In this document: positions 4,103-17,952 of the stretch, in pieces
How the letters are laid out: every line of letters begins with the position of its first letter
Numbering within the stretch: position 1 is the first letter of the stretch
Assembly (NCBI GenBank): GCA_015233405.1
Contig: JADFXT010000003.1
Location: 54,591 to 118,590 of the forward strand
Direction: 5' to 3'
DNA length: 64,000 bases
Origin: Candidatus Omnitrophota bacterium
GTDB lineage: Bacteria; Omnitrophota; Gorgyraeia; Zapsychrales; Zapsychraceae
The notes under the pieces: model-generated
Database searches by the model: none
Told to the model about the DNA's origin: nothing
What the model saw: only the letters and a program-made list of their open reading frames with translations
Position numbers and translations under genes: made by a program

Positions 4103-4387
4103 CTAACCGTTTATAAATGTTACCCCGAATCCTCCTCGAGGATTTTCCCAAACAATTGCGCCATCTGTACAAACCACCCGGCAGCTTCCGCACTCAAGAC
4201 AATTTTCATATGAGGCTTCAATGGCGCCGCTTTTCTCTTCGTAGGTCTTCGCCGGACAAACAACAAGACACATCTTGTGCTCGCAGTGCTTACAAACTTT
4301 CTTGTTGATCTTGATATGGCTCGCTGCATCTTTCTTGGTCTTGACCAAAAAAAGCTTGTCATCTAAAGAAAGTTTTCCGGTTTTCAT
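4103..4387 (-). CDS. fixX: ferredoxin-like protein FixX
   Basis: 94 aa. CPAKTYEE...YENCLECGSCRVVC...WENPRGGFGVTF aligns closely with E. coli FixX/YdiT. ATGA overlap with fixC. Confidence 0.85.
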   Translation of the reverse strand: MKTGKLSLDDKLFLVKTKKDAASHIKINKKVCKHCEHKMCLVVCPAKTYEEKSGAIEASYENCLECGSCRVVCTDGAIVWENPRGGFGVTFING

Positions 4388-5697
4388 ATTAAATTACTCC
4401 ACGCGCCCCACATATCGGACGCGACACGGGTCAATTTCACGTTTTTCATGACACGATTAAAAATCTCTTTTTTAACAACGCTTTTGGGCTTTTCGGACAC
4501 ACGGAAATAATCCACCAGAATATCATTCATCAAAGTCGGATAATCGTTGATAAGGGATTTATGTTTATGCAAGAACGACAGAAAATTTTTGCAATTTTTT
4601 AAATCCTGCATGACGAAACTCGCCTTAAGTTTTTCTTCATATTGCGACAGCGCCTCAGCGGTAAAATCGTTCTTCTCCTTCGCCTCGATAATCGTTTCCG
4701 CAGCAGAAAGGCCGGAGGACATCGCCAAATTGACACCTTCATGGAAAAACGACGTATTTAAAAGTCCTGCTGCATCGCCGACGACCAATAGCCCATCCCG
4801 GTAAAGCTTAGGAAGATAATCAAACCCGTCAGACGGGATCATATGCGCCATATATTCGGTGGTTTCTCCTCCGCGCACTAAAGGGGCGATGACCGGATGG
4901 CTCTTAAAATCATCGAGAATATCATTCGGATTCTTTGCATTCTCACTTTTCATAAAATCGCTTAAAGAAAATCCAACGCCAACGGATAAACTGTCTTGGT
5001 TCGTATAAATAAATCCATTTCCCAAAAGCCCTTGGACGGAGGCACCAAAATATTCATAGGCCGCGCCTTGACGGTCCGTTAAGCCGAACCGGTCTTCAAT
5101 AACGCTTCGAGGCAGACGGATGTTTTCCTTGACCGCGATGGAACGACGGCCTGGACTAATTTTCTTACGAAGCCTTGCCTTTTCCGATAACAATGAATTC
5201 GCGCCTTCTGCACAGACAATCACATCAGCCAATAAGCTATCTTCATCTCCACCGCTTGTAATACCGACGACTTTTCCGTTTTCATAAAGAAAATCTCGTA
5301 CGCAGTAATTCGTGATAATGCTCGCGCCAGCCTCTTCTGCCTTCTTGGCCAACCATTGGTCCATCGAGCCACGCCGTGCCAGAAAGGAATGATTATACGG
5401 TGCAACGTTAAATGCCGCAGGCGTTAAATCAAACGCCATTTCGTTTTCATTCGCTAAAAGAGCAAATTTTCTTTTCCCGACGTAACGTTCCCACGGCGCG
5501 TTATCTAAGAAATCTGGGAAAAGTTTTTCCATGATGCTTGAGAAAAATATCCCTCCAAACACATTCTTCGCGCCAGGATATTCGCCGCGCTCAATAACGA
5601 CGACCTCTATCCCGCGTTTAGCCAGAGCATACGCACACGTCAATCCCGAAGGCCCTGCGCCGACAATAATAACTTCCATTTTATCAGTTTGATTCAT
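4384..5697 (-). CDS. fixC: FAD-dependent electron-transfer-flavoprotein:quinone oxidoreductase FixC
   Basis: 437 aa. VIIVGAGPSGL dinucleotide fold. Long colinear similarity to E. coli FixC (GAKNV.GG; LPRSVIEDRF.L...QGAA; GGGF/NGFIYTN; FK.HP..APL; VGDAAG). Confidence 0.9.
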   Translation of the reverse strand: MNQTDKMEVIIVGAGPSGLTCAYALAKRGIEVVVIERGEYPGAKNVFGGIFFSSIMEKLFPDFLDNAPWERYVGKRKFALLANENEMAFDLTPAAFNVAPYNHSFLARRGSMDQWLAKKAEEAGASIITNYCVRDFLYENGKVVGITSGGDEDSLLADVIVCAEGANSLLSEKARLRKKISPGRRSIAVKENIRLPRSVIEDRFGLTDRQGAAYEYFGASVQGLLGNGFIYTNQDSLSVGVGFSLSDFMKSENAKNPNDILDDFKSHPVIAPLVRGGETTEYMAHMIPSDGFDYLPKLYRDGLLVVGDAAGLLNTSFFHEGVNLAMSSGLSAAETIIEAKEKNDFTAEALSQYEEKLKASFVMQDLKNCKNFLSFLHKHKSLINDYPTLMNDILVDYFRVSEKPKSVVKKEIFNRVMKNVKLTRVASDMWGAWSNLI

Positions 5698-6115
5698 GAG
5701 AAAAATTCTCTAACTTGCCCGTTTGTTTGTTTATTTGTTTGTTTGGGAAAAACTTATCTCTGATGAGCGCCGCATACTTTCCGGAAACATATAAACCTTT
5801 TTTCAACGTCTCTGCAATATTCGTTCGACTGCGCCGCAAAATATGAGCGCGGGATTTTGTCGCCGTTTTTAAATGAATAGCCTCATGAACTGGCTCTTTA
5901 TCGTGAAGATTTGCTTCAGTATGATTATTTGATTTTATTTTCTTGAGGAGGTCTAGAACAGCTTCTCGGGGGATACGCTGATGCCCGCCTAATGTAGTGA
6001 CCGCTTTAAGCTTTCCTTGCTTGACCCAACTTAAGACGGTAAAACGGGTAACATGAAGAAGCTCTGCAGCTTGCGACGTTGTTAAAAAATTATGTGAGGA
6101 GGTTGGAGTGTGCAT
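5684..6115 (-). CDS. excisionase/MerR-superfamily helix-turn-helix DNA-binding protein
   Basis: N-terminal LTTSQAAELLHVTRFTVLSWVKQGKLKAVTTLGGHQRIPREAV (HTH_17-like). Paralogous to the N-terminus of the 17494-17952 product. First gene after a sigma70-like promoter. Confidence 0.8.
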   Translation of the reverse strand: MHTPTSSHNFLTTSQAAELLHVTRFTVLSWVKQGKLKAVTTLGGHQRIPREAVLDLLKKIKSNNHTEANLHDKEPVHEAIHLKTATKSRAHILRRSRTNIAETLKKGLYVSGKYAALIRDKFFPNKQINKQTGKLENFSHESN

Positions 6116-6150
6116 TTATTGTTGAAATAAAGATTAATAAAAGTGTTTGG

Positions 6151-6179
6151 ATTATAGGCAATCAACCAAAAAAAGTCAA
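6151..6179 (-). promoter_or_regulatory. sigma70-type promoter (TTGACT-17 nt-TATAAT) for the HTH-fixCX-mamI-like operon
   Basis: Minus strand reads ttgact ttttttggttgattgcc tataat. The -10 element lies ~36 nt upstream of the ATG at 6115. Confidence 0.5.
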
Positions 6180-6293
6180 TAAAAAATATTCGACCGGATT
6201 TTTTATAAAAGAGTGTTGAAAATGTTGAATGATTTCTTACATTTTCTCGTCTGGAAAGGCTTTTCTCGGCAAGAAAAATAAAAAAAGCCTAAA

Positions 6294-7313
6294 TTAATGA
6301 AACCCTGGTGTTTTGTACTGAACAATTTCACCATTTTTGCTTTCAATAACCAGGACTTCAACGCGCTTTAAAGCATGCGCTAAACGCAAGCCTTTTTCAC
6401 CACCTAAAACAGAAATAGCCGTTGATAATTCATTGGCCGCTTGGGTCGTATTGGCTACAACGGTGACACTTACGGCCCCTTTTTGAGGGTAACCGCTAAC
6501 AGGATCTATGATATGCGAGAACGCTTCAGAACCGATAGTATAGAATTTTTCATAATTGCCGGAAGTTGATATGCCCCTATCACTTAGAACTGTGGTGCAA
6601 TATAATTTCTCCTTGTTAAAAGGGTCCTGAACCCCTATGATCCAAGGTTTTTTCCCCTGATCTTTTCCTCTGCAAAATATCTCACCTCCGCCATCAACCA
6701 GAAAATGTTTGATCCTGTTTTTATCAAGTATTTTTGCAAGTTCATCGCAAACGAATCCTGAAGCAGGAGAACCAAGATCCACTTTCATTCCCGGTTTTTT
6801 AAAAGAAATAAAATCCGGAGCCTTAAGGCATAAATTCCGATAACCAACTTTATCTTTTGTTTTTTCTAATAAATCTTTATCCGGAAGTTTTCCTTGATCC
6901 GCAGATTTTTTCCATAATTCTACAAGCGGCAATGCAGTGATGTCATATGCGCCATTTGTCAGTTTAGAATATTCAATGGATTCTTTGATCACTTTAAACA
7001 CATCAGCCGTAACGCGCACCCCTTGAAATCCATCCGCATTTAATCTGCTTAGATCCCCTTCCATATTTTTTGAATGCGCATTCATGTGCAATTGAACTTC
7101 CTCAACTTTTTTCCAGCATTGATTAATAACCGATATAACATTTATCTTTGGGTCATAAAAAAAATGAATGCGCACATAAGCCCCTAAATAAGGCCTTGTT
7201 TCATCGTAATCCAAAAGTTTTTGTTTCTTAAAAGACGATCGAATTAGAAAGAAGAATGCACCGAGGATGATTAACAAAAAAATGTTGAGAATGTTGATAT
7301 GATTTGGGTTCAC
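6294..7313 (-). CDS. apbE: ApbE-family FAD:protein FMN transferase with N-terminal signal anchor
   Basis: 339 aa, ApbE-like throughout (YDITALPLVELW; DLGSPASGFVCDELAKIL; GGGEIFCRG; ISTSGNYEKF; HIIDPVSGYP). N-terminal TM (ILNIFLLIILGAFFFLI). Confidence 0.85.
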   Translation of the reverse strand: MNPNHINILNIFLLIILGAFFFLIRSSFKKQKLLDYDETRPYLGAYVRIHFFYDPKINVISVINQCWKKVEEVQLHMNAHSKNMEGDLSRLNADGFQGVRVTADVFKVIKESIEYSKLTNGAYDITALPLVELWKKSADQGKLPDKDLLEKTKDKVGYRNLCLKAPDFISFKKPGMKVDLGSPASGFVCDELAKILDKNRIKHFLVDGGGEIFCRGKDQGKKPWIIGVQDPFNKEKLYCTTVLSDRGISTSGNYEKFYTIGSEAFSHIIDPVSGYPQKGAVSVTVVANTTQAANELSTAISVLGGEKGLRLAHALKRVEVLVIESKNGEIVQYKTPGFH

Positions 7314-7347: not shown

Positions 7348-8130
7348 CTATAGAAACCTGAGGTATTTACGGCAAAGCCCAGTGAGAAACAGTGGAATAA
7401 TAAAAATACCAACAAATTCTTCTAGAATAGCAACAATTTTGTTGAATCCGATTGGAATTATGTCTCCATAACCAATGTGCGTGAAGGTAATTAAGCTAAA
7501 ATAAATGGATTCAAATAAATTCGGTTTGTGAGCAACCGAACTAACAAGAAAATGGCCCTGGGTATACAATAAAGCGGTCAATAAAATTAATGAACAGGCA
7601 AAAATAACTGTTCGCTGCGGGCGCTCTCCGTGGCCCCATAGGATGGAAGATATCGATAATAAAACCCAAGAGATAAAAAGCTTCATCCGTCCTTTAAGAT
7701 CAAATCCTTGATGATTCTTTCCGACATGATGAAGTCGTTTGGCATAAAATAAATGCGGCATCAGAGACTTTCGATAACATTCTTTGGAAAGAAAAAAGCA
7801 TTCTGAAAAACTGACATATTCCAGGTCGCGCTCATAACAAATCCCTGCATTTTTGTAAAGAATGCTCGCGTATTCATAATCGCCGGAGATGACCGCTTCT
7901 TCAGCGGCTTTTTCATAATACATCGACGCATAATAGAACAATGTCTGCCTGCCGCCTTGAAATTCACAGCAGCTCGCCGCGGAAGTAAAACAGATTGTTG
8001 CTTGTTTATGCTGTCCCTGGCTTTGATAAGACATGGCCGCTTGCAAAAAAAGCTTCGAAGCTTCCTCATATTTTTGAGCTTCAAAAAGCTTCTGCGCTTC
8101 TTGTTCTATATTTTTAATATCGTCGGCCAT
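7348..8130 (-). CDS. two-TM K+-channel-like protein with N-terminal TPR/SNAP-like helical-repeat domain
   Basis: Selectivity-filter-like SLITFTHIGYGD between two TM helices. The N-terminal ~115 aa are helical repeats (AQKYEEASKLFLQAAMSY..YYEKAAEEA..ASILYKNAGICY). The start overlaps the STAS stop (TAATG). Confidence 0.75.
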   Translation of the reverse strand: MADDIKNIEQEAQKLFEAQKYEEASKLFLQAAMSYQSQGQHKQATICFTSAASCCEFQGGRQTLFYYASMYYEKAAEEAVISGDYEYASILYKNAGICYERDLEYVSFSECFFLSKECYRKSLMPHLFYAKRLHHVGKNHQGFDLKGRMKLFISWVLLSISSILWGHGERPQRTVIFACSLILLTALLYTQGHFLVSSVAHKPNLFESIYFSLITFTHIGYGDIIPIGFNKIVAILEEFVGIFIIPLFLTGLCRKYLRFL

Positions 8131-8468
8131 TATGTTCCTAAATCTTTCATTGCCATTTCCCGATGTTCATAAATCGGGATCAATTTGTGGATCTTTGTGA
8201 TTTCAAACAGCCCCTTTACGTCTTTATTAACATTACAGATCGCCAGTTTTCCGCCGGATTTCTTAAGCATTTGCATCATTTCTATGAGTGTCGCAAGCCC
8301 GGCGCTGCAGACAAACGTCACCTTTTCAAAATCAACCAGGACTTTGGTCGAGCCTTCTTTCAACATTTTTAGAAATGATTCGCGTAGCGCGATGGAGTTG
8401 TCCACGCTCAATTCCCCATCCATGGTCACTACAGTAATGCCGCTTATTTTCTCAACCAGTATTTTCAT
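8130..8468 (-). CDS. STAS-domain anti-sigma-factor antagonist (SpoIIAA/RsbV-like)
   Basis: 112 aa, typical STAS layout (LVDFEKVTFVCSAGLATLIEM) with a candidate phospho-Ser. Confidence 0.85.
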   Translation of the reverse strand: MKILVEKISGITVVTMDGELSVDNSIALRESFLKMLKEGSTKVLVDFEKVTFVCSAGLATLIEMMQMLKKSGGKLAICNVNKDVKGLFEITKIHKLIPIYEHREMAMKDLGT

Positions 8469-8480
8469 TTTCAGCCTCCC

Positions 8481-8882
8481 TTATTGCTTCAAAAATTTAG
8501 TCATCTTTATTGTCCGGCCCTCATTGGCGAACTCTAATTTATCCATGACATTTTTTATAAGAAATATCCCTCTGCCGCTTAACTTTTCTAAATTTTCCGT
8601 TTTGACAGGGTCAGGAATCTTTTGATAATCAAAGCCTTTGCCTTGATCCGTCACTTGAATGGTTAGTTGATTCTCGTCAGATGTAATCTCAACCTGCACC
8701 GATAAACGCGGGTCCATTTTATTGCCATGTTTAACGGCATTGACAATCGCTTCATATAACACGAGCTTAATATTAAAAATAGTGCTTTGGTCCAAAGCCA
8801 ATGGAGACAGTTTCTCCAGAATTGAAGAAACAAATCCGTTTATAGGCGCAACTTGCGAAGGTATGGTCTCAAATATATGCAT
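8481..8882 (-). CDS. anti-sigma regulatory factor / Ser-Thr kinase (RsbW/SpoIIAB-like, HATPase_c)
   Basis: 133 aa with EAIVNAVKHGN (N-box), DQGKGFD (G1) and GRGIFLIKNVMD (G2). Confidence 0.85.
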   Translation of the reverse strand: MHIFETIPSQVAPINGFVSSILEKLSPLALDQSTIFNIKLVLYEAIVNAVKHGNKMDPRLSVQVEITSDENQLTIQVTDQGKGFDYQKIPDPVKTENLEKLSGRGIFLIKNVMDKLEFANEGRTIKMTKFLKQ

Positions 8883-8943
8883 AAAGGTTGCAGTAAATTA
8901 TCAAAAAAACTCCGACGCGTCAAATAAAAATATCCCTTACCCT

Positions 8944-10887
8944 TTAAATAATCTTAACAACAATAAAAGTGATATCATCCGACTGCTTATGTTGCGGCTC
9001 AAATTTCCGGACATCTTTTTCAATCGAGGACAACAATCCTCTTGCGGGGAAATTCCGGTCTTTTTCAATTGTAGAAATCAGCCGTTCCTTGCCATACATT
9101 TGGCCCTTGGCGTTTCTCGCTTCTGTGATCCCGTCGGTATAAAAAACAAAAATGTCGCCGGAAGAAAATGCGATCTGTCCGCCGGAGTAAGTGCTTTCGA
9201 GCATCCCTAAGGGGTATCCGTCTTCCACATCCAAAGCTTTAGCGGAAGCGCCCTTGGGCAAATATAAAACCGGCAGATGCCCGCCGTTGGCGTACGTCAT
9301 GATCTTTTTATCCATGTCGAATATGGAATAATAAAGCGTGACAAATAATCCTGTCGGAGAGTCCTGGGTTAATTTTAAGTTTAAATTGTGAAGCGCCTCA
9401 TGCGGCTTGGTTTCGGACAAAGCGAAAAATTTAAACGCGCCCGAAACCGTGGTCATAAAAAGGCTGGCCGGCATGCCTTTTCCGGAAACGTCGCCGATCA
9501 TGACGCCAAGCCGTTTAGGGCTGAATTCATAAAAATCATACAAATCCCCGCCGACCTCACGGGCCGTATACATGATGGCGGCGATATCAAGCCCGGCGGT
9601 CATAGGAAGCGTTTTAGGAAGGAAACTCTCCTGGATCTTCTTGGCAATTTTCATTTCATTCTCGACGAGGATTTTCTTCTTCCACTCGCGGATGGAGATC
9701 ATCAGCGTTGAAAGCAAATAAAGCGCCACCAACGCAAAGAACGGATAAAACATATCCACCCAAATTCCGAATAAAATGAACAATAAAATCGCCAAGACGC
9801 TATAGGAAAAAATCGTGCCGGCTAATATCAAAAAACTCTTAAATGGCTTGGTGGCAAATACGCCCCAGACGATCAACGCGCCTAATAAAAACAAAATGAC
9901 CTGGTTGGTTTGCTTTGAGGCGCGGACGATAAATTGTTTATTCAATATAGAATTAATAATGTCGCTGTGCACCGCAAGCGCCGGATAAAGCGCGGAGAAC
10001 GGGTTAGGATGCAGGTCTGCCGTGCCGGCGGCGGTGAGTCCTACAATGCAAATTTTGTCCTTAAAAACATTTAAATCCAGCGTCGGCTTTTCTCCTTTTT
10101 TTAAAGAAACATAAGACTGCAAAATATCCACAAAAGAATAATGTTTATAATATCTGCCCCAATCGCCGGCATAATTCACGATCACATTTGAATTTTCATC
10201 CACCGGGATCCGCATCTTGCGGCCCAATTGAATATAGCGACCAGGATAAAGCTTTAGATCTTTAGCAGATAACCCCAAATAAGCAGAGATTAAACGAAGC
10301 GAAAGATATGGATGAAGCGTGTTTCCATATTCAACCAAAAGCGGAACGCGCCGATATTTTCCGTCGGGGTCTGGGATGACATTAATATGCCCGATACCTG
10401 CAGCCACTTGCCTGAAATTTTCTAACGTTTGGGCCGTATAACCCTTTGCCTCGATGACCTTTTGTTTTGGCGTATTGTCCAGATCAAAAACATATGGCAA
10501 ATAAACATTACCCGTGGTCTTGATCGCCTGTTCCAATTCTGGGTCGCCATTGCCTTTCTCCGAGAAGAAAATATCCATCAAAACGGCTTTGGCGCCATAT
10601 TCAGACAAAGCCTTGATCAAAACAGCATGATACCCTCTGTCAAAAGGGAATCGCCCTAATTTGGCGATAGAATCTTCACCAATTTCAACAATTACAACTT
10701 TATCAGATGTGAATACGAACGGACGGAGATGAAAACGAAAGTCTAATGCGCCAAGCTCACTATTTTCAAAAATGCGAGCATGGGAACCGCACAAAAGAAT
10801 GGCAGCAAAGGCGAGAAAGATAAGGACCAACAAAACGTTTTGAAACGCAACGGCCAGCAAATCAAGAATTTTTTTCAGATTGACCAT
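8944..10887 (-). CDS. CHASE2 sensor domain / PP2C (SpoIIE-type) serine phosphatase
   Basis: 647 aa. N-terminal TM plus CHASE2-like region (VVIVEIGEDSIAKLGRFPFDRGYHAVLIKAL..DIFFSE). Three to four TM helices. C-terminal SpoIIE/PP2C region (IQESFLP, GGDLYDF, GDVSGKGMPASLFM, YTDGITEA). Confidence 0.9.
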   Translation of the reverse strand: MVNLKKILDLLAVAFQNVLLVLIFLAFAAILLCGSHARIFENSELGALDFRFHLRPFVFTSDKVVIVEIGEDSIAKLGRFPFDRGYHAVLIKALSEYGAKAVLMDIFFSEKGNGDPELEQAIKTTGNVYLPYVFDLDNTPKQKVIEAKGYTAQTLENFRQVAAGIGHINVIPDPDGKYRRVPLLVEYGNTLHPYLSLRLISAYLGLSAKDLKLYPGRYIQLGRKMRIPVDENSNVIVNYAGDWGRYYKHYSFVDILQSYVSLKKGEKPTLDLNVFKDKICIVGLTAAGTADLHPNPFSALYPALAVHSDIINSILNKQFIVRASKQTNQVILFLLGALIVWGVFATKPFKSFLILAGTIFSYSVLAILLFILFGIWVDMFYPFFALVALYLLSTLMISIREWKKKILVENEMKIAKKIQESFLPKTLPMTAGLDIAAIMYTAREVGGDLYDFYEFSPKRLGVMIGDVSGKGMPASLFMTTVSGAFKFFALSETKPHEALHNLNLKLTQDSPTGLFVTLYYSIFDMDKKIMTYANGGHLPVLYLPKGASAKALDVEDGYPLGMLESTYSGGQIAFSSGDIFVFYTDGITEARNAKGQMYGKERLISTIEKDRNFPARGLLSSIEKDVRKFEPQHKQSDDITFIVVKII

Positions 10888-10954
10888 GATAAAAAATTAG
10901 TCCTTTTCTTGTTTTGCCAATTATAACATTTCTTTTATAAAAGAACAGAATATT

Positions 10955-11890
10955 CTACAGGCGCAAATCCTTCTCTCTGGAATAAACCGAACATTTCTTG
11001 CATTTATTGATCTTCTCTTCAGCCGTACCCTGCATTTGTCCATCGCACCAGGTGTAATCCACATCCCAGCATTTGACCCCATGATTGGGAAACGCAGGGC
11101 ATTGAACCTGACGCTCCGCCGGACAATTTAAGATGTCCCAGCAAGAAGACTTTAAAAGATTTTTACAATAATCCTGTAAATCATTCGTCCGCTTTTTCAT
11201 TCCGTTTATCAAGCGGTCCCAGTTTTCTTTATTTTCCAACTCCTTAGAGAATGGCCTTTTCTCGATACCTTCCAGAAAACTCTCGACACTCCAGCAATAA
11301 TTTTTTAAGGTGTCTAAAAGACGATTTATTCGTAAGGTCACCTCTTCATCCGGCATTGCATCTCTCCAGACCTCAAATCCCCCCAGCACCCTTCCTCGTT
11401 TATCAATGAGCGGACCAGCTGTAACAATGATCGTATGCTCGCGATCGAATTTGTCCTGAACCTTGACCCTTTTACCAATGACGGACTTCTGCGTCGTCAT
11501 AGCTTGTTTAATAGCACAATTTTTCTCGCACAAATCGCTATTAAACACTCTCATACACTTGACTTTTCCTATGGCATCATTTAATTTCAAGCCTGTAAAA
11601 TCAAGGCAAGCCGGATTCATATATTGGATCTTCATGTTTTTATCCACGACGAAGAACGGATAACTTGAGGCCCGCAAGATGCTAGCAGCGAAAGAAGACA
11701 TCTCTTCAAACTCATCAAAGACTTTTGCCTTGGAAGATAAAAATTCCAGAAAATTATTATGCTCCCCACTTTTAGGCTCAGCTTTCTTTTGAGAAAACCG
11801 CGTCTTTTCAGAATCTTTTTTATCGACGGGATCCGGAACATTTTTCAAATCTTCAATGACTTGTACCATCCGATAGAAATTCATTGCCAT
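10955..11890 (-). CDS. PAS-domain protein with C-terminal Cys-rich module containing two CW dipeptides
   Basis: PAS-like core (FFVVDKNMKIQYMNPACLDFTG...TAGPLIDKRGRVLGGFEVWRD). C-terminus CWDILNCPAERQVQCPAFPNHGVKCWDVDYTWCDG...CKKCSVY. Confidence 0.75.
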   Translation of the reverse strand: MAMNFYRMVQVIEDLKNVPDPVDKKDSEKTRFSQKKAEPKSGEHNNFLEFLSSKAKVFDEFEEMSSFAASILRASSYPFFVVDKNMKIQYMNPACLDFTGLKLNDAIGKVKCMRVFNSDLCEKNCAIKQAMTTQKSVIGKRVKVQDKFDREHTIIVTAGPLIDKRGRVLGGFEVWRDAMPDEEVTLRINRLLDTLKNYCWSVESFLEGIEKRPFSKELENKENWDRLINGMKKRTNDLQDYCKNLLKSSCWDILNCPAERQVQCPAFPNHGVKCWDVDYTWCDGQMQGTAEEKINKCKKCSVYSREKDLRL

Positions 11891-12042: not shown

Positions 12043-12948
12043 TTACGCTGGCTCAAAAAAGAAATCAACTTCACCGATGGACGGAAGATTACGAATAACC
12101 GACTTCTTCATATCGTCCATGGCCACACAGACTTCCTGAAGAGTACCCGTCTTGGGACAGCGAAGACTGATGCCGACCCAAAATTTCTTGCCCACTCTCT
12201 TAAACTTGATACTCCCTGGTCGATATTTAGGATAAGCGGACAGGATCATCTTTTCTATGCGAAGCGCGAACCCCGGTTCAGGAACCTGGTCCAGGATGTT
12301 TCGCACATTAGAAGCCCAATGACTCAAAGAATCTTTAACAATGACCACACCGACGATGAGAGCTGCTAACCGGTCGCAGACGGCAAAATCAGCCCCCATC
12401 TGAGATAAAATGATCCCTAAAATCACGGCACTTGAAGAAAGGACATCTGCTCCGGCGTGACAACCGTTTGCAATCAGTCCAGAGCTATCTAACCTTTTGC
12501 CGGCGCAAAAATTATACCGTTGGATCATATAGGTCAGAAAGACCGACGCTACGGCAACGGGGAGCGCCAACACAATATCCGGTTGGACAAAATCACGTCT
12601 AAGAATGGCCAGAATGCTCGAAAGCGTAATAGAAACGCCAAACCCGATCAAGATACTAAACGCGATAAGCGCGACGATAAATTCAAGTTTCGCATAACCA
12701 TACGGAAATCGAACATCATTCGGCCGACTGGAAAATGACAAGCTCACCATAATGAGAATGCTCGTCACAACACAAGCGATGGATTGAATTCCGTCGGCGA
12801 TCATCCCGGAACTGTTGGCGAACGTTCCACCGGCAAGTTTTATTACGACCAAAACAGCATTGCCGATGACTGTCCAGACGAGGATTTTCTTTGAACACGC
12901 CCAACAGCCTTCTGTCGTCATACAGGAATTTGCATTTTTTGAAATCAT
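12043..12948 (-). CDS. cation diffusion facilitator transporter, MamB-like (N-terminal CxxC)
   Basis: 301 aa with CDF topology. N-terminal CWAC parallels the CxxC of MamB. TM2 ADGIQSIACV. TM5 NGCHAGADV (HxxxD retained). PYGYAKLEF loop. C-terminal cytoplasmic domain. Confidence 0.8.
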   Translation of the reverse strand: MISKNANSCMTTEGCWACSKKILVWTVIGNAVLVVIKLAGGTFANSSGMIADGIQSIACVVTSILIMVSLSFSSRPNDVRFPYGYAKLEFIVALIAFSILIGFGVSITLSSILAILRRDFVQPDIVLALPVAVASVFLTYMIQRYNFCAGKRLDSSGLIANGCHAGADVLSSSAVILGIILSQMGADFAVCDRLAALIVGVVIVKDSLSHWASNVRNILDQVPEPGFALRIEKMILSAYPKYRPGSIKFKRVGKKFWVGISLRCPKTGTLQEVCVAMDDMKKSVIRNLPSIGEVDFFFEPA

Positions 12949-13835
12949 ATTTTTTCTTCCAGCCTAATACCAATGAACACTTCATGGGGGCTTAAAAATT
13001 TTACCTTTACCGCTCTTTTGATGTTCTCTGCGATAGCAAAAACGTCCACCATGGGAATGTCTTTTGCCGTCGACAGATCAGCGATAATTTCGTAGATGTG
13101 GCCGATCTTGTTAACGCGTAACGCCTTTAACGACGCTTCACCTATCTGTGCTTTACGGATACAACTTTCGACCTCGGAAACAGTTTTCTTATCGCACGAG
13201 GCATCCATCAGCCCTATAAAGGCTTTATATAAAAATAAAACACTGTAGGCGATGATAAAGAACGCCGCAAAAATAGCGCATCCATAATCAACAATGTAAG
13301 ACCCCATCCTCGATATTACGACGGTAAGGATGGTCAAGACCGAAAGCAGGAAATCTGTATCCAGAATAAAGATAATATCCTTCGATTCGTCTTCTTCCTG
13401 AATATTGGTTATCTCGGCCTTGATTCTTACCATAAACACTAAACTGATCGTAGCAGCGATCGCCGCAACCCACGCAGCCAGAAATTCTGGCGGATAAAGC
13501 GTGTGAAAGAAAATCATATGGCCTAAAGAAAAAAGAAGGGCGCTGGTGCTTAAGGCGATAACTGACGATATCGCCAAAAGGATCATGAATTCAAGCTTGC
13601 CCCGGTTAAAATATGGCGATAGCCGTCGGGAAGAATGCGTTATACCGATGCGCATCAAGGTGGCAATGGCTATCAAGATACCAAAAATCGCGAAGATGCC
13701 GGATACCAATAAACATTTTGAGCCCGTGATGACGCCTAAAACAGTCTTAAACAAAAAAGATGTTATAAAAAAATATAATAAGGCATAGGTGATCCGCTCT
13801 TTCTTTTCTTTAAGGAAATCTGGTTTCTTTTTCAT
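12945..13835 (-). CDS. cation diffusion facilitator paralogue with degenerate transport-site residues (MamM-like partner?)
   Basis: CDF-like layout (NRGKLEFMILLA loop, C-terminal domain). TM2 reads LVSGIFAIFG, lacking the D/H pair. The ATG at 13835 is preferred over the track GTG at 13859 because it lies 2 nt after the upstream stop. ATGA-type 4-nt overlap with the downstream CDF gene. Confidence 0.75.
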   Translation of the reverse strand: MKKKPDFLKEKKERITYALLYFFITSFLFKTVLGVITGSKCLLVSGIFAIFGILIAIATLMRIGITHSSRRLSPYFNRGKLEFMILLAISSVIALSTSALLFSLGHMIFFHTLYPPEFLAAWVAAIAATISLVFMVRIKAEITNIQEEDESKDIIFILDTDFLLSVLTILTVVISRMGSYIVDYGCAIFAAFFIIAYSVLFLYKAFIGLMDASCDKKTVSEVESCIRKAQIGEASLKALRVNKIGHIYEIIADLSTAKDIPMVDVFAIAENIKRAVKVKFLSPHEVFIGIRLEEKI

Positions 13836-13837
13836 CG

Positions 13838-14680
13838 TTATCCCTGGATTACATGGCACTTAGAACAAATCCCTCGATATTCATGCGGCGCCTGCGCATT
13901 TGCCGGTATCGCTGGGACATTAGGGGTCATAATCACATGACAATTTTCACAGACGCCGCGAAATTCATGCATCATAATTGCATCACGCAAAATGGCCGGC
14001 GCCTTTGTTTGTCCCGGGATTGGCTTCGTTAAAGCAACCGTCCGCGCTCCAGGGAATACACATCCATTTCTGCCCGTATACGCAATCTGCTGGCCAGCAC
14101 CGCCCGTCGTGGCAGGAGGAAAACATTGGGTAACCGTCGGACATGTCATACAACCCGGCGGAATATACGCCGCTTGTTGACCGGCCTGCGCCTGCCACTG
14201 ATTAAAAATTTGCGTTCCCGTTGGACAATTGGGTTGAAAGGCTATTTGTTGTCCACCACCCGTTGCCGGAGGAAAACATTGGGCAACATTGGGACACACC
14301 GCACAATTCGGTGGAACATACGCAGCCTGTTGTGCAGCGCCTGTTCCTTGAGGAAAACATTGTGTGACCGTTGGGCACGTCATACAACCCGGCGGAATAT
14401 ACGCCACTTGCTGCGGCATGGACTGCCACTGATTAAAGTCTTGAGCAGCGGTTGGATAATTCTGCTGAAACGCGACCTGCTGAGAGCCTCCCGTGGCAAT
14501 AATCCCTTGCTGGGCAGGATCTTGAACGGGCACCGGTTTGGGCCGCATATTAAAAAGCGCAAAGCAGAAAAATGACGTGAGCCCGACGACAGTAAGCCCT
14601 ATCATCCATAAACTTTTGGCATTGATATTCGCGCAGGAATCGTCTGCGAAAAATATCTCTTCTTTTTTATCGTTCTTCAT
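13838..14680 (-). CDS. TM-anchored double-magnetochrome (2x CXXCH) protein with Q-rich CxxC..C repeat region
   Basis: 280 aa. N-terminal TM (LWMIGLTVVGLTSFFCFALF). Repeats of PPGCMTCPTVTQCFP type. C-terminal MHEFRGVCENCHVI and PHEYRGICSKCHVI. Confidence 0.85.
   Translation of the reverse strand: MKNDKKEEIFFADDSCANINAKSLWMIGLTVVGLTSFFCFALFNMRPKPVPVQDPAQQGIIATGGSQQVAFQQNYPTAAQDFNQWQSMPQQVAYIPPGCMTCPTVTQCFPQGTGAAQQAAYVPPNCAVCPNVAQCFPPATGGGQQIAFQPNCPTGTQIFNQWQAQAGQQAAYIPPGCMTCPTVTQCFPPATTGGAGQQIAYTGRNGCVFPGARTVALTKPIPGQTKAPAILRDAIMMHEFRGVCENCHVIMTPNVPAIPANAQAPHEYRGICSKCHVIQG
13841..13972 (-). other. two tandem magnetochrome-type heme-c motifs
   Basis: H-E-F-R-G-V-C-E-N-C-H and P-H-E-Y-R-G-I-C-S-K-C-H, about 28 residues apart. 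Confidence 0.75.
14078..14482 (-). repeat. in-frame ~234-nt (78-aa) super-repeat inside the double-CXXCH gene
   Basis: QQVAFQQNYPTAAQDFNQWQ..QQVAYIPPGCMTCPTVTQCFP versus QQIAFQPNCPTGTQIFNQWQ..QQAAYIPPGCMTCPTVTQCFP. DNA blocks near 14117-14180 and 14351-14414 are nearly identical. Confidence 0.8.
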
Positions 14681-14774
14681 GAAAAACCCCTTTCATTTTA
14701 ATCCCTCCGTCCCCCTTATACTGATGGGGGAGGTTATATATTGTCACAATCCAAGGAACACAATTGTTTTGCCT

Positions 14775-14897
14775 GTCATCCTCAACTTCCTCGATGTTGT
14801 ATCTAGAAATGATTGGGGATCCATTAAATGCTTTTAGGTCCTAAGCCCCTACAGGAGGACACCTTCTGGATCCCCGCCTAAAGATTGCGGGGATGAC
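14775..14897. repeat. palindromic MITE/REP-like element, subfamily A (123 bp, left arm degenerate)
   Basis: Starts gtcatcctc, contains the core ggggatccattaaatgcttttaggtcc, and ends ggatccccgcctaaagattgcggggatgac. The right arm is nearly identical to that of 36178-36283. Confidence 0.8.
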
Positions 14898-14989
14898 AGA
14901 AAAAGATCAAGGATAAGACCTATAATTTTCATCATTTCCACAAAAACGGGAATCCACTCTTTAAAAAATAAAAATCATATAACCAGACA

Positions 14990-15436
14990 CTATATTCCGC
15001 CGGGACGGGTTCCTACCGTCGTATAAATAATGACCGATTCTCCTTGCCGGTCGATCGTAATTTTAACACGCTCATTTGTATTGGATGTCTGGATAAGCCG
15101 CTCCAGTTGTTCCGGGCTGGTTACACTGGTCCCGTTCCACCTTCGGATGACATCCCCTTCATGAATTTTGGACGCTTGCGCCGGCGAGCCGACAAAAACT
15201 CTCGAAACCAATAAGCCGTTCGATGACTGAATATCAAATTGCTTTTTGATATCCGTCGTAAGCTCAACCGTTTCCATGCCCAGCCAAAGCCGCGAATCCG
15301 CAGGCTTGAGCAGCATGGTCGGCAACTTTATAAAAAGCACAATCACCGTAATGGCCGTTAAAAGGATCATAAAAAGGACCGCGTTGACCGCGTCATCATT
15401 TTTTCTCTTAATGGCCACCTTTGTTTTTATCATCAT
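14990..15436 (-). CDS. TM-anchored single-PDZ-domain protein
   Basis: 148 aa. N-terminal TM (AVLFMILLTAITVIVLFI) followed by PDZ (LWLGMETVELTTDIKKQFDIQSSNGLLVSRVFVGSPAQASKIHEGDVIRRWNG). 4-nt overlap with the NapH-like gene. Confidence 0.8.
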   Translation of the reverse strand: MMIKTKVAIKRKNDDAVNAVLFMILLTAITVIVLFIKLPTMLLKPADSRLWLGMETVELTTDIKKQFDIQSSNGLLVSRVFVGSPAQASKIHEGDVIRRWNGTSVTSPEQLERLIQTSNTNERVKITIDRQGESVIIYTTVGTRPGGI

Positions 15437-16281
15437 TGCCCCTGATTATTCGTTGTCGCTGTTGCCCCAAGGCCAACCTTGACATTTTCACATTTCAAAC
15501 ACTTAAAACATCTCACACACGTCGACGCGCCAGGGTCATCACTAATGTTGATATCCACCGGACAGACCTCTCTACATTTTTGGCAATCTTTGCAATCGCG
15601 CGGGTCCACTTTTAGTTGAAGAATGCTGTGTCTATTAAAGAATCCAAATATCGCACCGAGCGGGCAGGCTAGACGGCAAAATGGCCTTTTGGCGATAATG
15701 AAAAGCGCGATAAAAGAAAATGCGATAAGGATCTTGATGATAAATAATAACCCTAAAGTCGAAAGAGACACAGCCGGCTCGCCGTAGACCGGAATGATCG
15801 GATTCCAAACGACCCAAGGAATCGCGGCTTGAAGCGTCCCCATAGGGCACACCTTCGAGAACCAAGTCTCTTGCGTGATTAACGGGAACAAAATAACGAG
15901 AAAAATCAGGATCAGATATCGTAAGGCTGATAACTTTTGTGGAAGACGGATCTTTACACTCTTTATTTTATAAAAAAGATCCTGGATAAGCCCAAACGGG
16001 CACAACCAACCGCATGCCAAAGAACCCACCATAATTCCGGTGGTCGCAAGATATGCCGTCAAAAGATACGGGAACTTACGGATGGTCATAAAATGTTGAA
16101 ATGTTCCAATAGGGCAGGAAAGAAATGCCGACGGACAACTATGGCAATTCAACCCCGGGATGCACACACTTTTTAGCGAGCCCTGATAAACCTGTTTGGT
16201 CCTTAAAAAACCGAAATACGCATTTGTTAAGACGAGCGAACACCACTGTGCTGTCGTGCGTATACTCTGTAGCAAATCCAT
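15433..16281 (-). CDS. NapH/MauN/NosH-like integral-membrane polyferredoxin (putative quinol-linked electron transfer)
   Basis: 282 aa. CX3CP motifs (CGWLCP, CRLACP) plus CHSCPSAFLSCP between TM helices. C-terminal 2x[4Fe-4S]-type CKDCQKCREVCP and CVRCFKCLKC. Confidence 0.8.
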   Translation of the reverse strand: MDLLQSIRTTAQWCSLVLTNAYFGFLRTKQVYQGSLKSVCIPGLNCHSCPSAFLSCPIGTFQHFMTIRKFPYLLTAYLATTGIMVGSLACGWLCPFGLIQDLFYKIKSVKIRLPQKLSALRYLILIFLVILFPLITQETWFSKVCPMGTLQAAIPWVVWNPIIPVYGEPAVSLSTLGLLFIIKILIAFSFIALFIIAKRPFCRLACPLGAIFGFFNRHSILQLKVDPRDCKDCQKCREVCPVDINISDDPGASTCVRCFKCLKCENVKVGLGATATTNNQGQ

Positions 16282-16284
16282 CCG

Positions 16285-16419
16285 TTACTCCAATCCAATA
16301 CAGGCCATGCACATGGTGGCCCCGTTGTTTTGTGTCTCGAGAGGTTCGTTGTTATTGTCTCCGATAAGGAAAAAAATAAACGCCAAAAAGAAGACGACAA
16401 TCACGACTATCTTTTTCAT
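16285..16419 (-). CDS. possible 44-aa exported/membrane peptide with C-terminal CMAC (below ORF-track cutoff)
   Basis: Hand translation: MKKIVVIVVFFLAFIFFLIGDNNNEPLETQNNGATMCMACIGLE. The stop lies 4 nt before the NapH-like ATG. No homology claim is made. Confidence 0.3.
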   Translation of the reverse strand: MKKIVVIVVFFLAFIFFLIGDNNNEPLETQNNGATMCMACIGLE

Positions 16420-16439
16420 AATCAAACATCCTTCCAGAT

Positions 16440-16790
16440 TTACTGGCTTTCAATCCATGTCATATATGTTCGACACCGCGGGCATTGTGGAAATCCGCTA
16501 TATCCGCAGGCCGGACAAACAAAGGCGCCCCGATATCCGTTCCAATACATGGAAACCTGGCACGTCGGGCATAAAGGAACTCCTTTTGCACCGCACTTGG
16601 GACAAACACTGAACACATTATGTTCAATCACCTTCATGACGACATTATTGGAAACAAGGGAACGCGCCTGGACTGTTTTAAATTTCGAAACCGAATACAT
16701 GGCATACCCGGACAAAAAAATGGCAAAAGCCACCACCATGATAAGTAGGCGATTTCTGTCCTGATCATTTAAGATAATACTGTCTTCCAT
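16440..16790 (-). CDS. TM-anchored double zinc-ribbon protein
   Basis: 116 aa. TM (LLIMVVAFAIFLSGYAMY) followed by CPKCGAKGVPLCPTCQVSMYW and CPACGYSGFPQCPRCRTYMTW. The ribbon style matches that of the 3-1577 product. Confidence 0.65.
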   Translation of the reverse strand: MEDSIILNDQDRNRLLIMVVAFAIFLSGYAMYSVSKFKTVQARSLVSNNVVMKVIEHNVFSVCPKCGAKGVPLCPTCQVSMYWNGYRGAFVCPACGYSGFPQCPRCRTYMTWIESQ

Positions 16791-16792
16791 GC

Positions 16793-17497
16793 TTACAACA
16801 CCTTCACTTTGGGTTTTACAGCGGCACTATTAAGCGGCGCAGTCACGGCGGTTACCTCATGCATAACGCCACCACACTTAGGGCATTGCGTGGGAACAAT
16901 AGCTCCGGCACTTTTTTCCGAAACGCGGTAACTGCAATCAAAGCACATATAATATTTTCCCTGGACTATCCGCCCGACGTTGGCTTGGGCATCAAAGGAG
17001 TTACAGGCCACCGGCGTTTTACTTCCGGTAATGCCGAAATGCGACGGAACGTTTTGTTCGGTAAGTTTGGTCAGGCCGTCGGGAAAATCATTGAGCGCCT
17101 GCCACACGGTCCCTTTTAAATCCGTATAAACTTCAATACGCGCCTGGCTAAAAACTCTAAAAGGTTCAAATCCAACATTGTTGCCGAGAACAGCGTCGAC
17201 GTTTAAACCCGCGATCATTTGAGCGGAACGTAACCCAGCGGCATGCTGGGCGTCCATAAATTTATTCGGTACGGCCTTATACGTTCTTTTGGCACGGTCA
17301 CAGATAATATAAAACGGCGCCCTGCCGAACAGGTAGGAAACCGGGCTTGAAATGTCTTTCCCCGTCGATGCGATCGCGATGATCACGGCCTTTTTACCGG
17401 TCAAAACCAATGGATTATTCTTTTCATAAAGCGCGCGCCCAATGACAAGGCCGACCGCCACAATCAAAACGATGAGGAATATCGTTTCTTTTTTCAT
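16793..17497 (-). CDS. membrane-anchored NifX/NifB-C-like domain protein with C-terminal zinc ribbon
   Basis: 234 aa. N-terminal TM. Good NifX-family pattern (AVIIAIASTGKDISSPVSYLFGRAPFYIICD...GLNVDAVLGNNVGFEPFRVFSQARIEVY). C-terminal CFDCSYRV...CPKCGGVM. Confidence 0.8.
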   Translation of the reverse strand: MKKETIFLIVLIVAVGLVIGRALYEKNNPLVLTGKKAVIIAIASTGKDISSPVSYLFGRAPFYIICDRAKRTYKAVPNKFMDAQHAAGLRSAQMIAGLNVDAVLGNNVGFEPFRVFSQARIEVYTDLKGTVWQALNDFPDGLTKLTEQNVPSHFGITGSKTPVACNSFDAQANVGRIVQGKYYMCFDCSYRVSEKSAGAIVPTQCPKCGGVMHEVTAVTAPLNSAAVKPKVKVL

Positions 17498-17952
17498 TGG
17501 GGATTACTCTTCTGCTTCGTTTTATTTTTCGTAGAAACAGCTTCGCCATCCTGGTCAAAATGGATTTTCTTGTAATACTCGCAGGATAAACAAGAAGTCT
17601 TACAGAAGATCTTTTGGTGGGCGACGTGTTCACGGATCGTGTAACACTTTTTGGTATCGGACAGAAAGACGACACAGAGTTTGCAGTTATGAACTCCATT
17701 ATTCTTCACCGGTTGATGAAATTCCCAACAGCGTAAAAAATCTGCATTTTCTATAAACTTCTCCGACTTAATTGCGTTGAGGCCGATTTTATACGTTTTA
17801 ATAAAAGCAACGAGGTCCGCACGGTGAATGCGCCGGTGGCCGCCCGGGGTCTTGGTGCTTTTTAAAATCCCTTTTTTCGTCCAATTGATGATAGAGAATC
17901 TTGTTACGTTGCAAAGCTTGGAAATCTCTACGGTTGAATAATATTCCTTCAT
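17494..17952 (-). CDS. excisionase/MerR-superfamily HTH DNA-binding protein with Cys-rich C-terminal module
   Basis: YSTVEISKLCNVTRFSIINWTKKGILKSTKTPGGHRRIHRADLV (HTH_17-like) followed by CWEF..CKLC..C..CKTSCLSCEYY. AGGAGG RBS. 4-nt overlap with the downstream NifX-like gene. Confidence 0.8.
   Translation of the reverse strand: MKEYYSTVEISKLCNVTRFSIINWTKKGILKSTKTPGGHRRIHRADLVAFIKTYKIGLNAIKSEKFIENADFLRCWEFHQPVKNNGVHNCKLCVVFLSDTKKCYTIREHVAHQKIFCKTSCLSCEYYKKIHFDQDGEAVSTKNKTKQKSNPQ

Follow-up and report, generated by a model that had tools for sequence, protein, structure and literature searches.

A tandem magnetochrome protein with a conserved three-cysteine repeat in its stalk, encoded in an Omnitrophota-type magnetosome gene cluster

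What is the purpose of a row of cysteine-rich repeats placed between the membrane anchor and the hemes of a magnetosome protein? In this work, we have used computational approaches to address this question for a gene (13838-14680, minus strand) present in a 64,000-nucleotide (nt) stretch of contig JADFXT010000003.1, from a Candidatus Omnitrophota bacterium; this stretch is hereafter called the window. Its product is almost certainly a tandem-magnetochrome, c-type di-heme redox protein of an Omnitrophota-type magnetosome gene cluster, with one N-terminal transmembrane (TM) anchor and the remainder exposed to the magnetosome lumen or the periplasm. Part of this is already known: the 280-amino acid (aa) product is NCBI MBF0521985.1 (100% identity), annotated as 'magnetochrome domain-containing protein' of a Candidatus Omnitrophota metagenome-assembled genome (MAG), that is, the gene stands in GenBank under a generic name, and its magnetochrome part is ordinary. 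The part that called for analysis is the stalk, whose repeated unit with three cysteines, the B unit, defines a family of such proteins and may, as we tentatively propose, hold a metal beside the hemes.

From its N-terminus, the protein consists of a TM helix, a near-uncharged stalk rich in Q, P, A, G, T and C, and two complete magnetochrome heme sites. In the 280-aa sequence Pfam found only the magnetochrome (MCR) family and no PDZ. Family PF18509 is matched in two stretches (E 9e-13, 48 bits against a cut-off of 30.4 bits), each with a CxxCH motif, at C244 and C272, predicted to attach a c-type heme covalently; the initial annotation had called the product a double-magnetochrome protein, and these matches bear it out. 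Residues H238, R241, G242, C244, C247 and H248 fall in invariant columns and are conserved across the 40 homologues described below, as are H266, C272, C275 and H276, and the sole match to a solved structure is MamP (4jj0; E 1e-3, aa 226-278). Several features that mark a magnetochrome protein were found, namely a passing PF18509 score, tandem MCRs, a single TM helix and a magnetosome cluster setting, with MamB/MamM-like cation diffusion facilitators (CDFs), a MamE-like protease and PDZ proteins. Since c-type heme is attached outside the cytoplasm, and the protein has no second TM segment, residues after about 45, the repeats included, would have to face the magnetosome lumen or the periplasm. 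The lumenal placement proposed earlier for the cysteine units thus follows from their position, after the TM anchor and before the c-type heme sites, on the same extracytoplasmic side as the hemes. A further cysteine, Cys16 ('SCAN'; codon 14633-14635), lies about 5-10 residues N-terminal of the TM helix, presumably on the cytoplasmic side; a cysteine N-terminal of the helix is present in 36 of 44 homologues, with the consensus xSCAxxxxKNxWIxG.

How is the stalk built? Residues 45-222 contain 16% Q, 14% P, 13% A, 10% G, 10% T and 6% C, and only 7 of the 178 are charged. They form six modules of about 25 aa, with QQxA(F/Y) starts at residues 67, 90, 117, 144, 168 and 197 (Table 1). Three of these are B units of the form QQxAY(I/V)PP(G/N)C(M/A)(T/V)CP(T/N)V(T/A)QCFP, with the core PPxC-x2-CP-x4-CFP; two are A units, QQ(V/I)AFQ..FNQWQ, which align to the B units as degenerate copies with no or one cysteine. 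The module order is A1-B1-B2-A2-B3, so that an A-B block occurs twice at an offset of 77-78 aa. The three PP-Cys-type units, the two A-type units and the 78-aa super-repeat were therefore read correctly in the initial annotation; the spacing was not, being C-x2-C-x5-C in all three units instead of the C-x-x-C-x6-C given there. A degenerate back-translated DNA pattern of the unit matched the window three times and 100 shuffles not once.

Pfam and NCBIfam recognised nothing in the stalk, and a profile of the double unit found no match among Protein Data Bank (PDB) sequences even at E <= 10. In AlphaFold2 (AF2) models the full-length protein reached a mean predicted local distance difference test (pLDDT) score of 53, with a confident TM helix and little confidence beyond it, and the double unit a mean of 62; both models are of low confidence and too uncertain for geometry. 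Within them, order in the stalk is highest in the B units (pLDDT about 60-72, compared with about 40 elsewhere), which are modelled as short turns round the cysteines, without a hydrophobic core, as would be expected for mini-domains that depend on a cofactor. Neither model found a match in the PDB with Foldseek.

How old are the duplications? Two nearly identical DNA copies, near 14117-14180 and 14351-14414, had been taken as a sign of recent duplication. The two best copies do lie there, precisely at 14116-14179 and 14350-14413, but they are 89% identical (57/64), which is not near-identity; a third copy (14269-14332) is 77% identical, and the whole A-B blocks of about 150 nt are about 77% identical in DNA. 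In the 21-codon core of B1 and B3 seven codons differ, six of them synonymously and one by a V/A replacement. The homologues repeat this pattern: the two units of L007 are identical in 21/21 aa with 11 synonymous codon differences, those of L017 in 21/21 with 5, and the three units of L011 in 19-20/21 with 4-6. Recency was therefore overstated, since mostly synonymous divergence between copies argues for a peptide under purifying selection and not for a fresh duplication. Units of one protein also share lineage-specific residues, such as the Met after Cys1 in B1 and B3, and mean nucleotide identity is higher among units of the same protein (80%) than among those of different proteins (61%), both of which point to duplication within lineages. 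The comparison of sequences thus indicates that the duplications are lineage-specific, yet old enough for good divergence at silent sites, and that purifying selection has kept the peptide.

Is the unit confined to proteins of this kind? A search for relatives among 5.8 billion proteins found 40, all of them with MCR, and the named ones are labelled Candidatus Omnitrophica/Omnitrophota except for one Planctomycetes. Canonical B units are present in 32 of the 40 (three units in 2 proteins, two in 16, one in 14), and the family ranges from 0 to 5 copies per protein, five being reached by P0002 if its two-Cys half units are counted. In the 52 canonical units Cys1, Cys2-Pro and Cys3-Phe-Pro are invariant, and the Pro-Pro before Cys1, the Thr after it and the loop (T/S)-(V/F)-(T/A)-(Q/N) are strongly conserved. 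One clade, comprising four of the 40 relatives and a fifth, P0046, from a wider search, has His at the spacing of Cys1 (H-x2-CP-x4-CFP) in all of its 11 units; its members also carry long N-terminal extensions. Cys1 is absent altogether from a few units (P0002, P0022), and Cys2 is Ser or Asn in P0043 and P0048, both from the wider search. Zinc-ribbons of the type CPxC...CPxC are inserted in the stalk of 16 of the 40 relatives; P0038-P0040 have zinc-ribbons only and no B unit, and P0033 alone has neither. Charge is avoided throughout the family, with a median of 4.4% D/E/K/R and 69% Q/A/P/G/T/N/C in the stalk.

Two further variations were seen among the relatives. A third, shorter stalk module, (Y/F)xPGCAQQ(V/A)A(F/Y), with one cysteine and a period of about 10 aa (for example QQVAYAPGCAQQVAYTPGCAQQVAL), is found in pairs in P0021, P0025, P0026, P0030, P0037, P0053 and P0003; the stalk is a mosaic of several types of Cys module. 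The heme end varies as well: P0009, P0016, P0020, P0021, P0023 and L023 have three or four magnetochrome domains, not two.

The motif itself was sought with a hidden Markov model (HMM) of 16 natural double units, run without prefilter against 1.84 billion cluster representatives. At E <= 1e-3 there were 27 matches, and 23 of them belong to the magnetochrome B-unit family or are fragments of its members, including P0044, with the order TM-B-B-PDZ-B-MCR-MCR, and P0047, a B-unit protein with a NifX-like gene next to it. The other four are weak, with E from 4e-7 to 8e-4; three are repeat proteins of a two-Cys type, 'CPSxxECFA', and one is a repetitive, probably spurious match. The B-unit motif is restricted to this magnetochrome family and is not a general periplasmic motif; its occurrence in unrelated proteins of non-magnetotactic bacteria, which the initial annotation had named as grounds for giving up its reading, was not seen in this exhaustive search. 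When GTDB species were scanned, each represented by one genome, MCR genes with B units turned up in MAGs that are labelled Omnitrophota (most of them), Fibrobacteria (nGRbin1), Planctomycetota/Planctomycetales and Hydrogenedentes. Two other searches gave less: a word-indexed search with the double-unit profile returned one protein from 1005 candidates and was uninformative, low-complexity words having swamped the list, and a metagenome scan with the back-translated motif yielded at least 120 chance matches in short frames, none listed in the family, with no bearing on distribution. We define the B-unit family as proteins with a TM segment, an uncharged stalk that contains one or more (C/H)-x2-CP-x4-CFP units and/or a zinc-ribbon, and tandem MCRs, whose gene has a TM-PDZ gene on one side and two CDF genes on the other; the protein studied here belongs to it. 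In the searchable full-text literature, which leaves out subscription-only papers such as Kolinko et al. 2016, we found no description of the B unit, of the A/B stalk or of the gene cassette.

How does this protein relate to the magnetochrome proteins already described? The initial annotation had set its layout apart from those of MamP, MamT and MamX, and the comparison supports this, as the protein has no PDZ and its NCBIfam scores for MamP and MamT (32 and 34 bits) are far from the cut-offs of 300 and 200. As a magnetochrome protein it most likely functions in the manner of MamP or MamT, but it is a member of neither family. Similarly to MamP (Magnetococcus/Magnetospirillum; PDB 4jj0/4jj3; NF040965), it has a single TM anchor and C-terminal tandem MCRs, is encoded in a core magnetosome cluster and presumably acts in the redox control of iron; MamP has ferroxidase activity (Arnoux 2014, PMC3971196). 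Unlike MamP, it has no PDZ between the TM helix and the MCRs, and so no PDZ 'crucible', the PDZs being coded by separate genes (14990-15436 and 1608-2213). Model NF040965 gives 31.8 bits, over the MCR region only, against an equivalog cut-off of 300 bits, and MamP is without the 150-aa uncharged Cys-repeat stalk. The relative P0044 combines B units with an internal PDZ. Origin of the upstream PDZ gene by simple fission from MamP was considered and rejected, because P0044 has both an internal PDZ and a separate upstream PDZ gene, the upstream PDZ is closer to DegP/DegQ PDZ1 than to MamP, and the internal PDZ of P0044 is only 25% identical to it.

MamT (NF040992) also consists of a TM anchor and tandem MCRs with no other recognised domain, and it gives the best NCBIfam score, 34.3 bits; however, the cut-off is 200 bits and the match covers only aa 254-280, a single MCR. 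MamT has about 150-175 aa and no Cys-repeat stalk, whereas the present protein has 280 aa, of which 150 make up the repeat stalk. In MamP* of the magnetotactic Deltaproteobacteria RS-1 and BW-1, the order MCR1-MCR2-PDZ-NitroFeMoCo is found in one chain (Arnoux et al. 2014, PMC3971196). The same set of two MCRs, PDZ and a Nitro_FeMo-Co domain is present in one operon here, but in a different order and on three genes (13838-14680, 14990-15436 and 16793-17497), with the NapH-like and zinc-ribbon genes intervening, and B units have not been reported for MamP*. The occurrence here, in separate genes, of domains that are fused in MamP* links the magnetochrome, PDZ and NifX-like products in function. 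Outside the magnetosome, the B unit resembles the Cys4 knuckles of rubredoxins and zinc-ribbons, which are also short, contain Cys-Pro and have no hydrophobic core, but it has three cysteines (C-x2-C-x5-C) and not two CxxC pairs, and no Pfam, NCBIfam, PDB-sequence (E <= 10) or fold match joins them.

What, then, could be the role of the B units? The possibility that we tentatively favour is that they are lumenal metal-thiolate sites, the metal most plausibly being iron, or one-electron relay sites next to the hemes, and that they replace the PDZ crucible of canonical MamP. The di-heme end would work as in MamP or MamT: it would exchange single electrons with iron and so set the Fe(II)/Fe(III) ratio while the mineral grows. 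The core PPxC-x2-CP-x4-CFP would form a small thiolate knuckle. The soft metal in it would most plausibly be Fe(II)/Fe(III), which is abundant in the lumen, and could be bound either within one unit with a fourth ligand, or between units or subunits. The outcome could be docking sites for substrate iron or rubredoxin-like one-electron stations beside the hemes.

In one clade, His stands in for Cys1 in all 11 units with the spacing unchanged; this speaks for a metal, being a classic Cys/His ligand swap that would be useless for a disulfide. So does the presence of true Cys4 zinc-ribbons that share the position of the B units in the stalk or replace them there. Of 46 proteins, only 26 have an even number of lumenal non-heme cysteines (p = 0.46); parity is thus random, whereas a fully disulfide-bonded design predicts mostly even counts. 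Finally, the positions other than cysteine are as constrained as the cysteines. Several observations weigh against a metal. Both AF2 models are of low confidence, and no Pfam, NCBIfam, PDB-sequence or fold match ties the unit to a known metal site. Each unit offers three ligands, one fewer than a rubredoxin-type site, and the stalk is without acidic residues, unlike known iron-handling magnetosome proteins. Across the variants only Cys3 is invariant, Cys1 being lost in P0002 and P0022 and Cys2 replaced by Ser or Asn in P0043 and P0048, which would fit a disulfide of Cys3 with Cys1 or Cys2.

This last point leads to the principal alternative, a purely structural stalk, which we consider somewhat unlikely. 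Here, the B units would be loops closed by a disulfide of Cys3 with Cys2 or Cys1, which stiffen an uncharged Pro/Gln-rich spacer without any metal, and their copy number would set the distance of the hemes from the membrane or mediate oligomerisation. In agreement with this, Cys3-Phe-Pro alone is invariant and every functional-looking unit retains Cys1 or Cys2 as a possible partner, homologues have anything between 0 and 5 copies, the composition is of low complexity and nearly uncharged with no acidic residues, AF2 confidence is low, and the stalk lies outside the cytoplasm, where disulfides form. The random cysteine parity, the Cys1-to-His change throughout one clade and the zinc-ribbon metal knuckles found in the same region of many members weigh against this, and P, T, V, T, Q, F and P are conserved as strongly as the cysteines, which is unusual for disulfide scaffolds or spacers.

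The favoured metal-thiolate proposal can be carried further, although we regard the extension as unlikely. The B units might be self-assembling iron-thiolate centres, rubredoxin-like Fe(Cys)n or small Fe-S, formed in the iron-rich lumen without the cytoplasmic cluster machinery, and together with the two hemes they would make a mixed heme/non-heme electron wire or a template for Fe-S nucleation. If true, this would bear on the greigite-like affinity noted for the magnetosome genes of Omnitrophota (Uzun et al. 2020), and would represent a new class of extracytoplasmic redox cofactor site for biomineralisation.

A thiol/disulfide relay is improbable in our view. A CxxC with a resolving cysteine would cycle between dithiol and disulfide, couple two-electron thiol chemistry to the one-electron hemes and poise the redox state of the lumen. 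The CxxC next to a third cysteine, in tandem copies beside hemes, would suit such a relay, as would the other redox proteins of the operon, NapH-like and NifX-like. But redox CxxC motifs normally require a folded scaffold, no thioredoxin-like fold or any family match was found for the unit, and several members do without Cys1 or Cys2 of the CxxC.

Equally improbable is a role in recognition or processing, in which the QQ(A/V)A(F/Y) elements and the conserved loops would be places where the neighbouring HtrA-type PDZ protein or the MamE-like protease docks or cuts, or the Thr-x-Thr loops would bind crystal faces, the cysteines only giving the loop its shape. HtrA PDZ domains bind hydrophobic or aromatic C-termini, and MamE processes MamP in Magnetospirillum. 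The stalk has six QQxA(F/Y) elements at a spacing of about 25 aa, Thr/Ser is conserved at three positions of the loop, and a TM-PDZ gene resembling DegP/DegQ PDZ1 is always immediately upstream. This proposal is purely analogical, and it leaves the invariant Cys3, the His swap and the co-occurring zinc-ribbons unexplained. Lastly, that the B units are decayed heme-less magnetochromes (CxxCH to CxxCP), as a superficial G-C-x-x-C-(H/P)-x-V resemblance to MCR might suggest, or an assembly or repeat-collapse artefact of a repetitive sequence, is essentially refuted, since a profile-profile alignment of 52 B units with 82 MCR units (hhalign) covers 8 columns at a probability of 3%, and B units have no distal His-x-x-Arg-Gly. 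An artefact is made unlikely by the DNA divergence of 11-30% between the copies and by the recurrence of this architecture across many independent assemblies.

To our knowledge, magnetochrome biochemistry so far comes entirely from the proteobacterial MamP, MamE, MamT and MamX. Deep-branching magnetotactic lineages (the Omnitrophota, and MAGs with the labels Planctomycetota, Fibrobacteria and Hydrogenedentes) follow another design, in which the tandem hemes are carried by a stalk of conserved three-Cys modules, often with additional zinc-ribbon knuckles, and the gene lies in a fixed cassette with NapH-like, NifX-like and PDZ genes. Magnetochrome proteins alone among redox proteins are associated with the magnetosome (Arnoux et al. 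2014, PMC3971196). Should the modules bind iron, they would provide a route for electrons and iron to the growing crystal in unculturable organisms, and engineering would gain a compact motif of 21 residues; if they are no more than disulfide staples, they would be a lineage-specific structural elaboration of limited wider interest. In either case the B unit is a clear, family-defining and experimentally tractable motif of uncultured magnetotactic lineages, whose significance hinges on its biochemistry.

The magnetochrome gene belongs to a minus-strand operon with the order HTH_17, NifX-like, zinc-ribbon, NapH-like, PDZ, magnetochrome, MamM-like, MamB-like and PAS (Table 1). A Shine-Dalgarno-like AAGGGG lies 7 nt 5' of its ATG, and its stop overlaps the start of the MamM-like CDF gene. 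In eight loci examined, from MAGs labelled Omnitrophota, Planctomycetota and Fibrobacteria, the gene occupies one conserved cassette. From called genes and Pfam, the cassette of NifX-like gene, zinc-ribbon-sized gene, NapH-like gene, PDZ gene, magnetochrome gene and two CDF genes is found in five loci (P0017, P0036, P0009, P0044 and L011, labelled Fibrobacteria). This layout is shared by the Planctomycetota locus L023, with a downstream open reading frame without CDF match, and P0038, a second paralogue in one genome, has a reduced context.

Table 1. Positions in the window of the magnetochrome gene, its modules and the surrounding genes
Feature	Residues	Position (nt)	Strand	Remarks
Magnetochrome gene with Cys-repeat stalk	1-280	13838-14680	minus	280 aa, TM-anchored, double magnetochrome
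Single TM helix	21-43	14552-14620	minus	AF2 helix, pLDDT 88-97
A1 module	67-89	14414-14482	minus	QQVAFQQNYPTAAQDFNQWQSMP; degenerate repeat, Cys-free
B1 Cys unit	90-110	14351-14413	minus	QQVAYIPPGCMTCPTVTQCFP; C99, C102, C108
B2 Cys unit	117-137	14270-14332	minus	QQAAYVPPNCAVCPNVAQCFP; C126, C129, C135
A2 module	144-167	14180-14251	minus	QQIAFQPNCPTGTQIFNQWQAQAG; degenerate, one Cys (C152)
B3 Cys unit	168-188	14117-14179	minus	QQAAYIPPGCMTCPTVTQCFP; C177, C180, C186; 20/21 aa and 89% nt identity to B1
Last QQxAY module	197-222	14015-14092	minus	QQIAYTGRNGCVFPGARTVALTKPIP; family-wide 'VALTxP' lead-in to first heme domain
Magnetochrome domain 1	226-250	13931-14005	minus	distal His238, C244-x2-C247-H248; Pfam PF18509, aligns to MamP 4jj0
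Magnetochrome domain 2	256-278	13847-13915	minus	His266, C272-x2-C275-H276; aligns to MamP 4jj0
HTH_17 regulator		17494-17952	minus	
NifX-like Nitro_FeMo-Co protein		16793-17497	minus	C-terminal rubredoxin-like/DUF7129 Cys knuckle, aa ~181-215
116-aa TM protein		16440-16790	minus	one TM helix, double CxxC...CxxC zinc-ribbon; conserved partner, 116-119 aa in other loci
NapH/MauN-like membrane polyferredoxin		15433-16281	minus	Fer4_5
TM + HtrA-type PDZ protein		14990-15436	minus	148 aa; conserved partner directly upstream of magnetochrome gene
MamM-like CDF transporter		12945-13859	minus	immediately downstream
MamB-like CDF transporter		12043-12948	minus	
PAS protein		10955-11890	minus	
CHASE2-SpoIIE phosphatase		8944-10887	minus	partner-switching set
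HATPase anti-sigma kinase		8481-8882	minus	partner-switching set
STAS		8130-8468	minus	partner-switching set
TPR + ion-channel protein		7348-8130	minus	
ApbE and FAD oxidoreductase		4384-7313		
MamE-like trypsin + PDZ protease		2218-3639	minus	without MCR
201-aa PDZ protein		1608-2213	minus	best NCBIfam match is MamP PDZ region
524-aa protein		3-1577	minus	single MCR and Zn-ribbon/rubrerythrin-like stretch; at the window's left edge

Some features of the neighbouring genes deserve mention. The cassette including HTH_17 is conserved (12043-17952 in the window; L001, L002, L011, L023 and L156), in MAGs labelled Omnitrophota, Planctomycetota and Fibrobacteria. The C-terminal knuckle of the NifX-like protein is another Cys4 module in the same operon. 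The zinc-ribbons of the 116-aa protein are similar to the CPxC...CPxC ribbons inside the stalk of the 16 magnetochrome homologues mentioned above, and the NapH-like polyferredoxin carries near its N-terminus the segment CHSCPSAFLSCP (aa ~45-56), C-x2-CP-x5-CP, which resembles the C-x2-CP-x4-CFP of the B unit. Between the PDZ and magnetochrome genes there is a 310-nt non-coding gap (14681-14989), compared with about 10-70 nt in the homologous loci checked; no sigma-70-like promoter on the strand of the gene, no terminator and no plausible small open reading frame were found in it. The magnetosome cluster continues at the left edge of the window, with the single-MCR protein, the 201-aa PDZ protein and the MamE-like protease. 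Regulatory genes, the partner-switching set and the PAS protein, lie inside the cluster, in the region 7348-11890.

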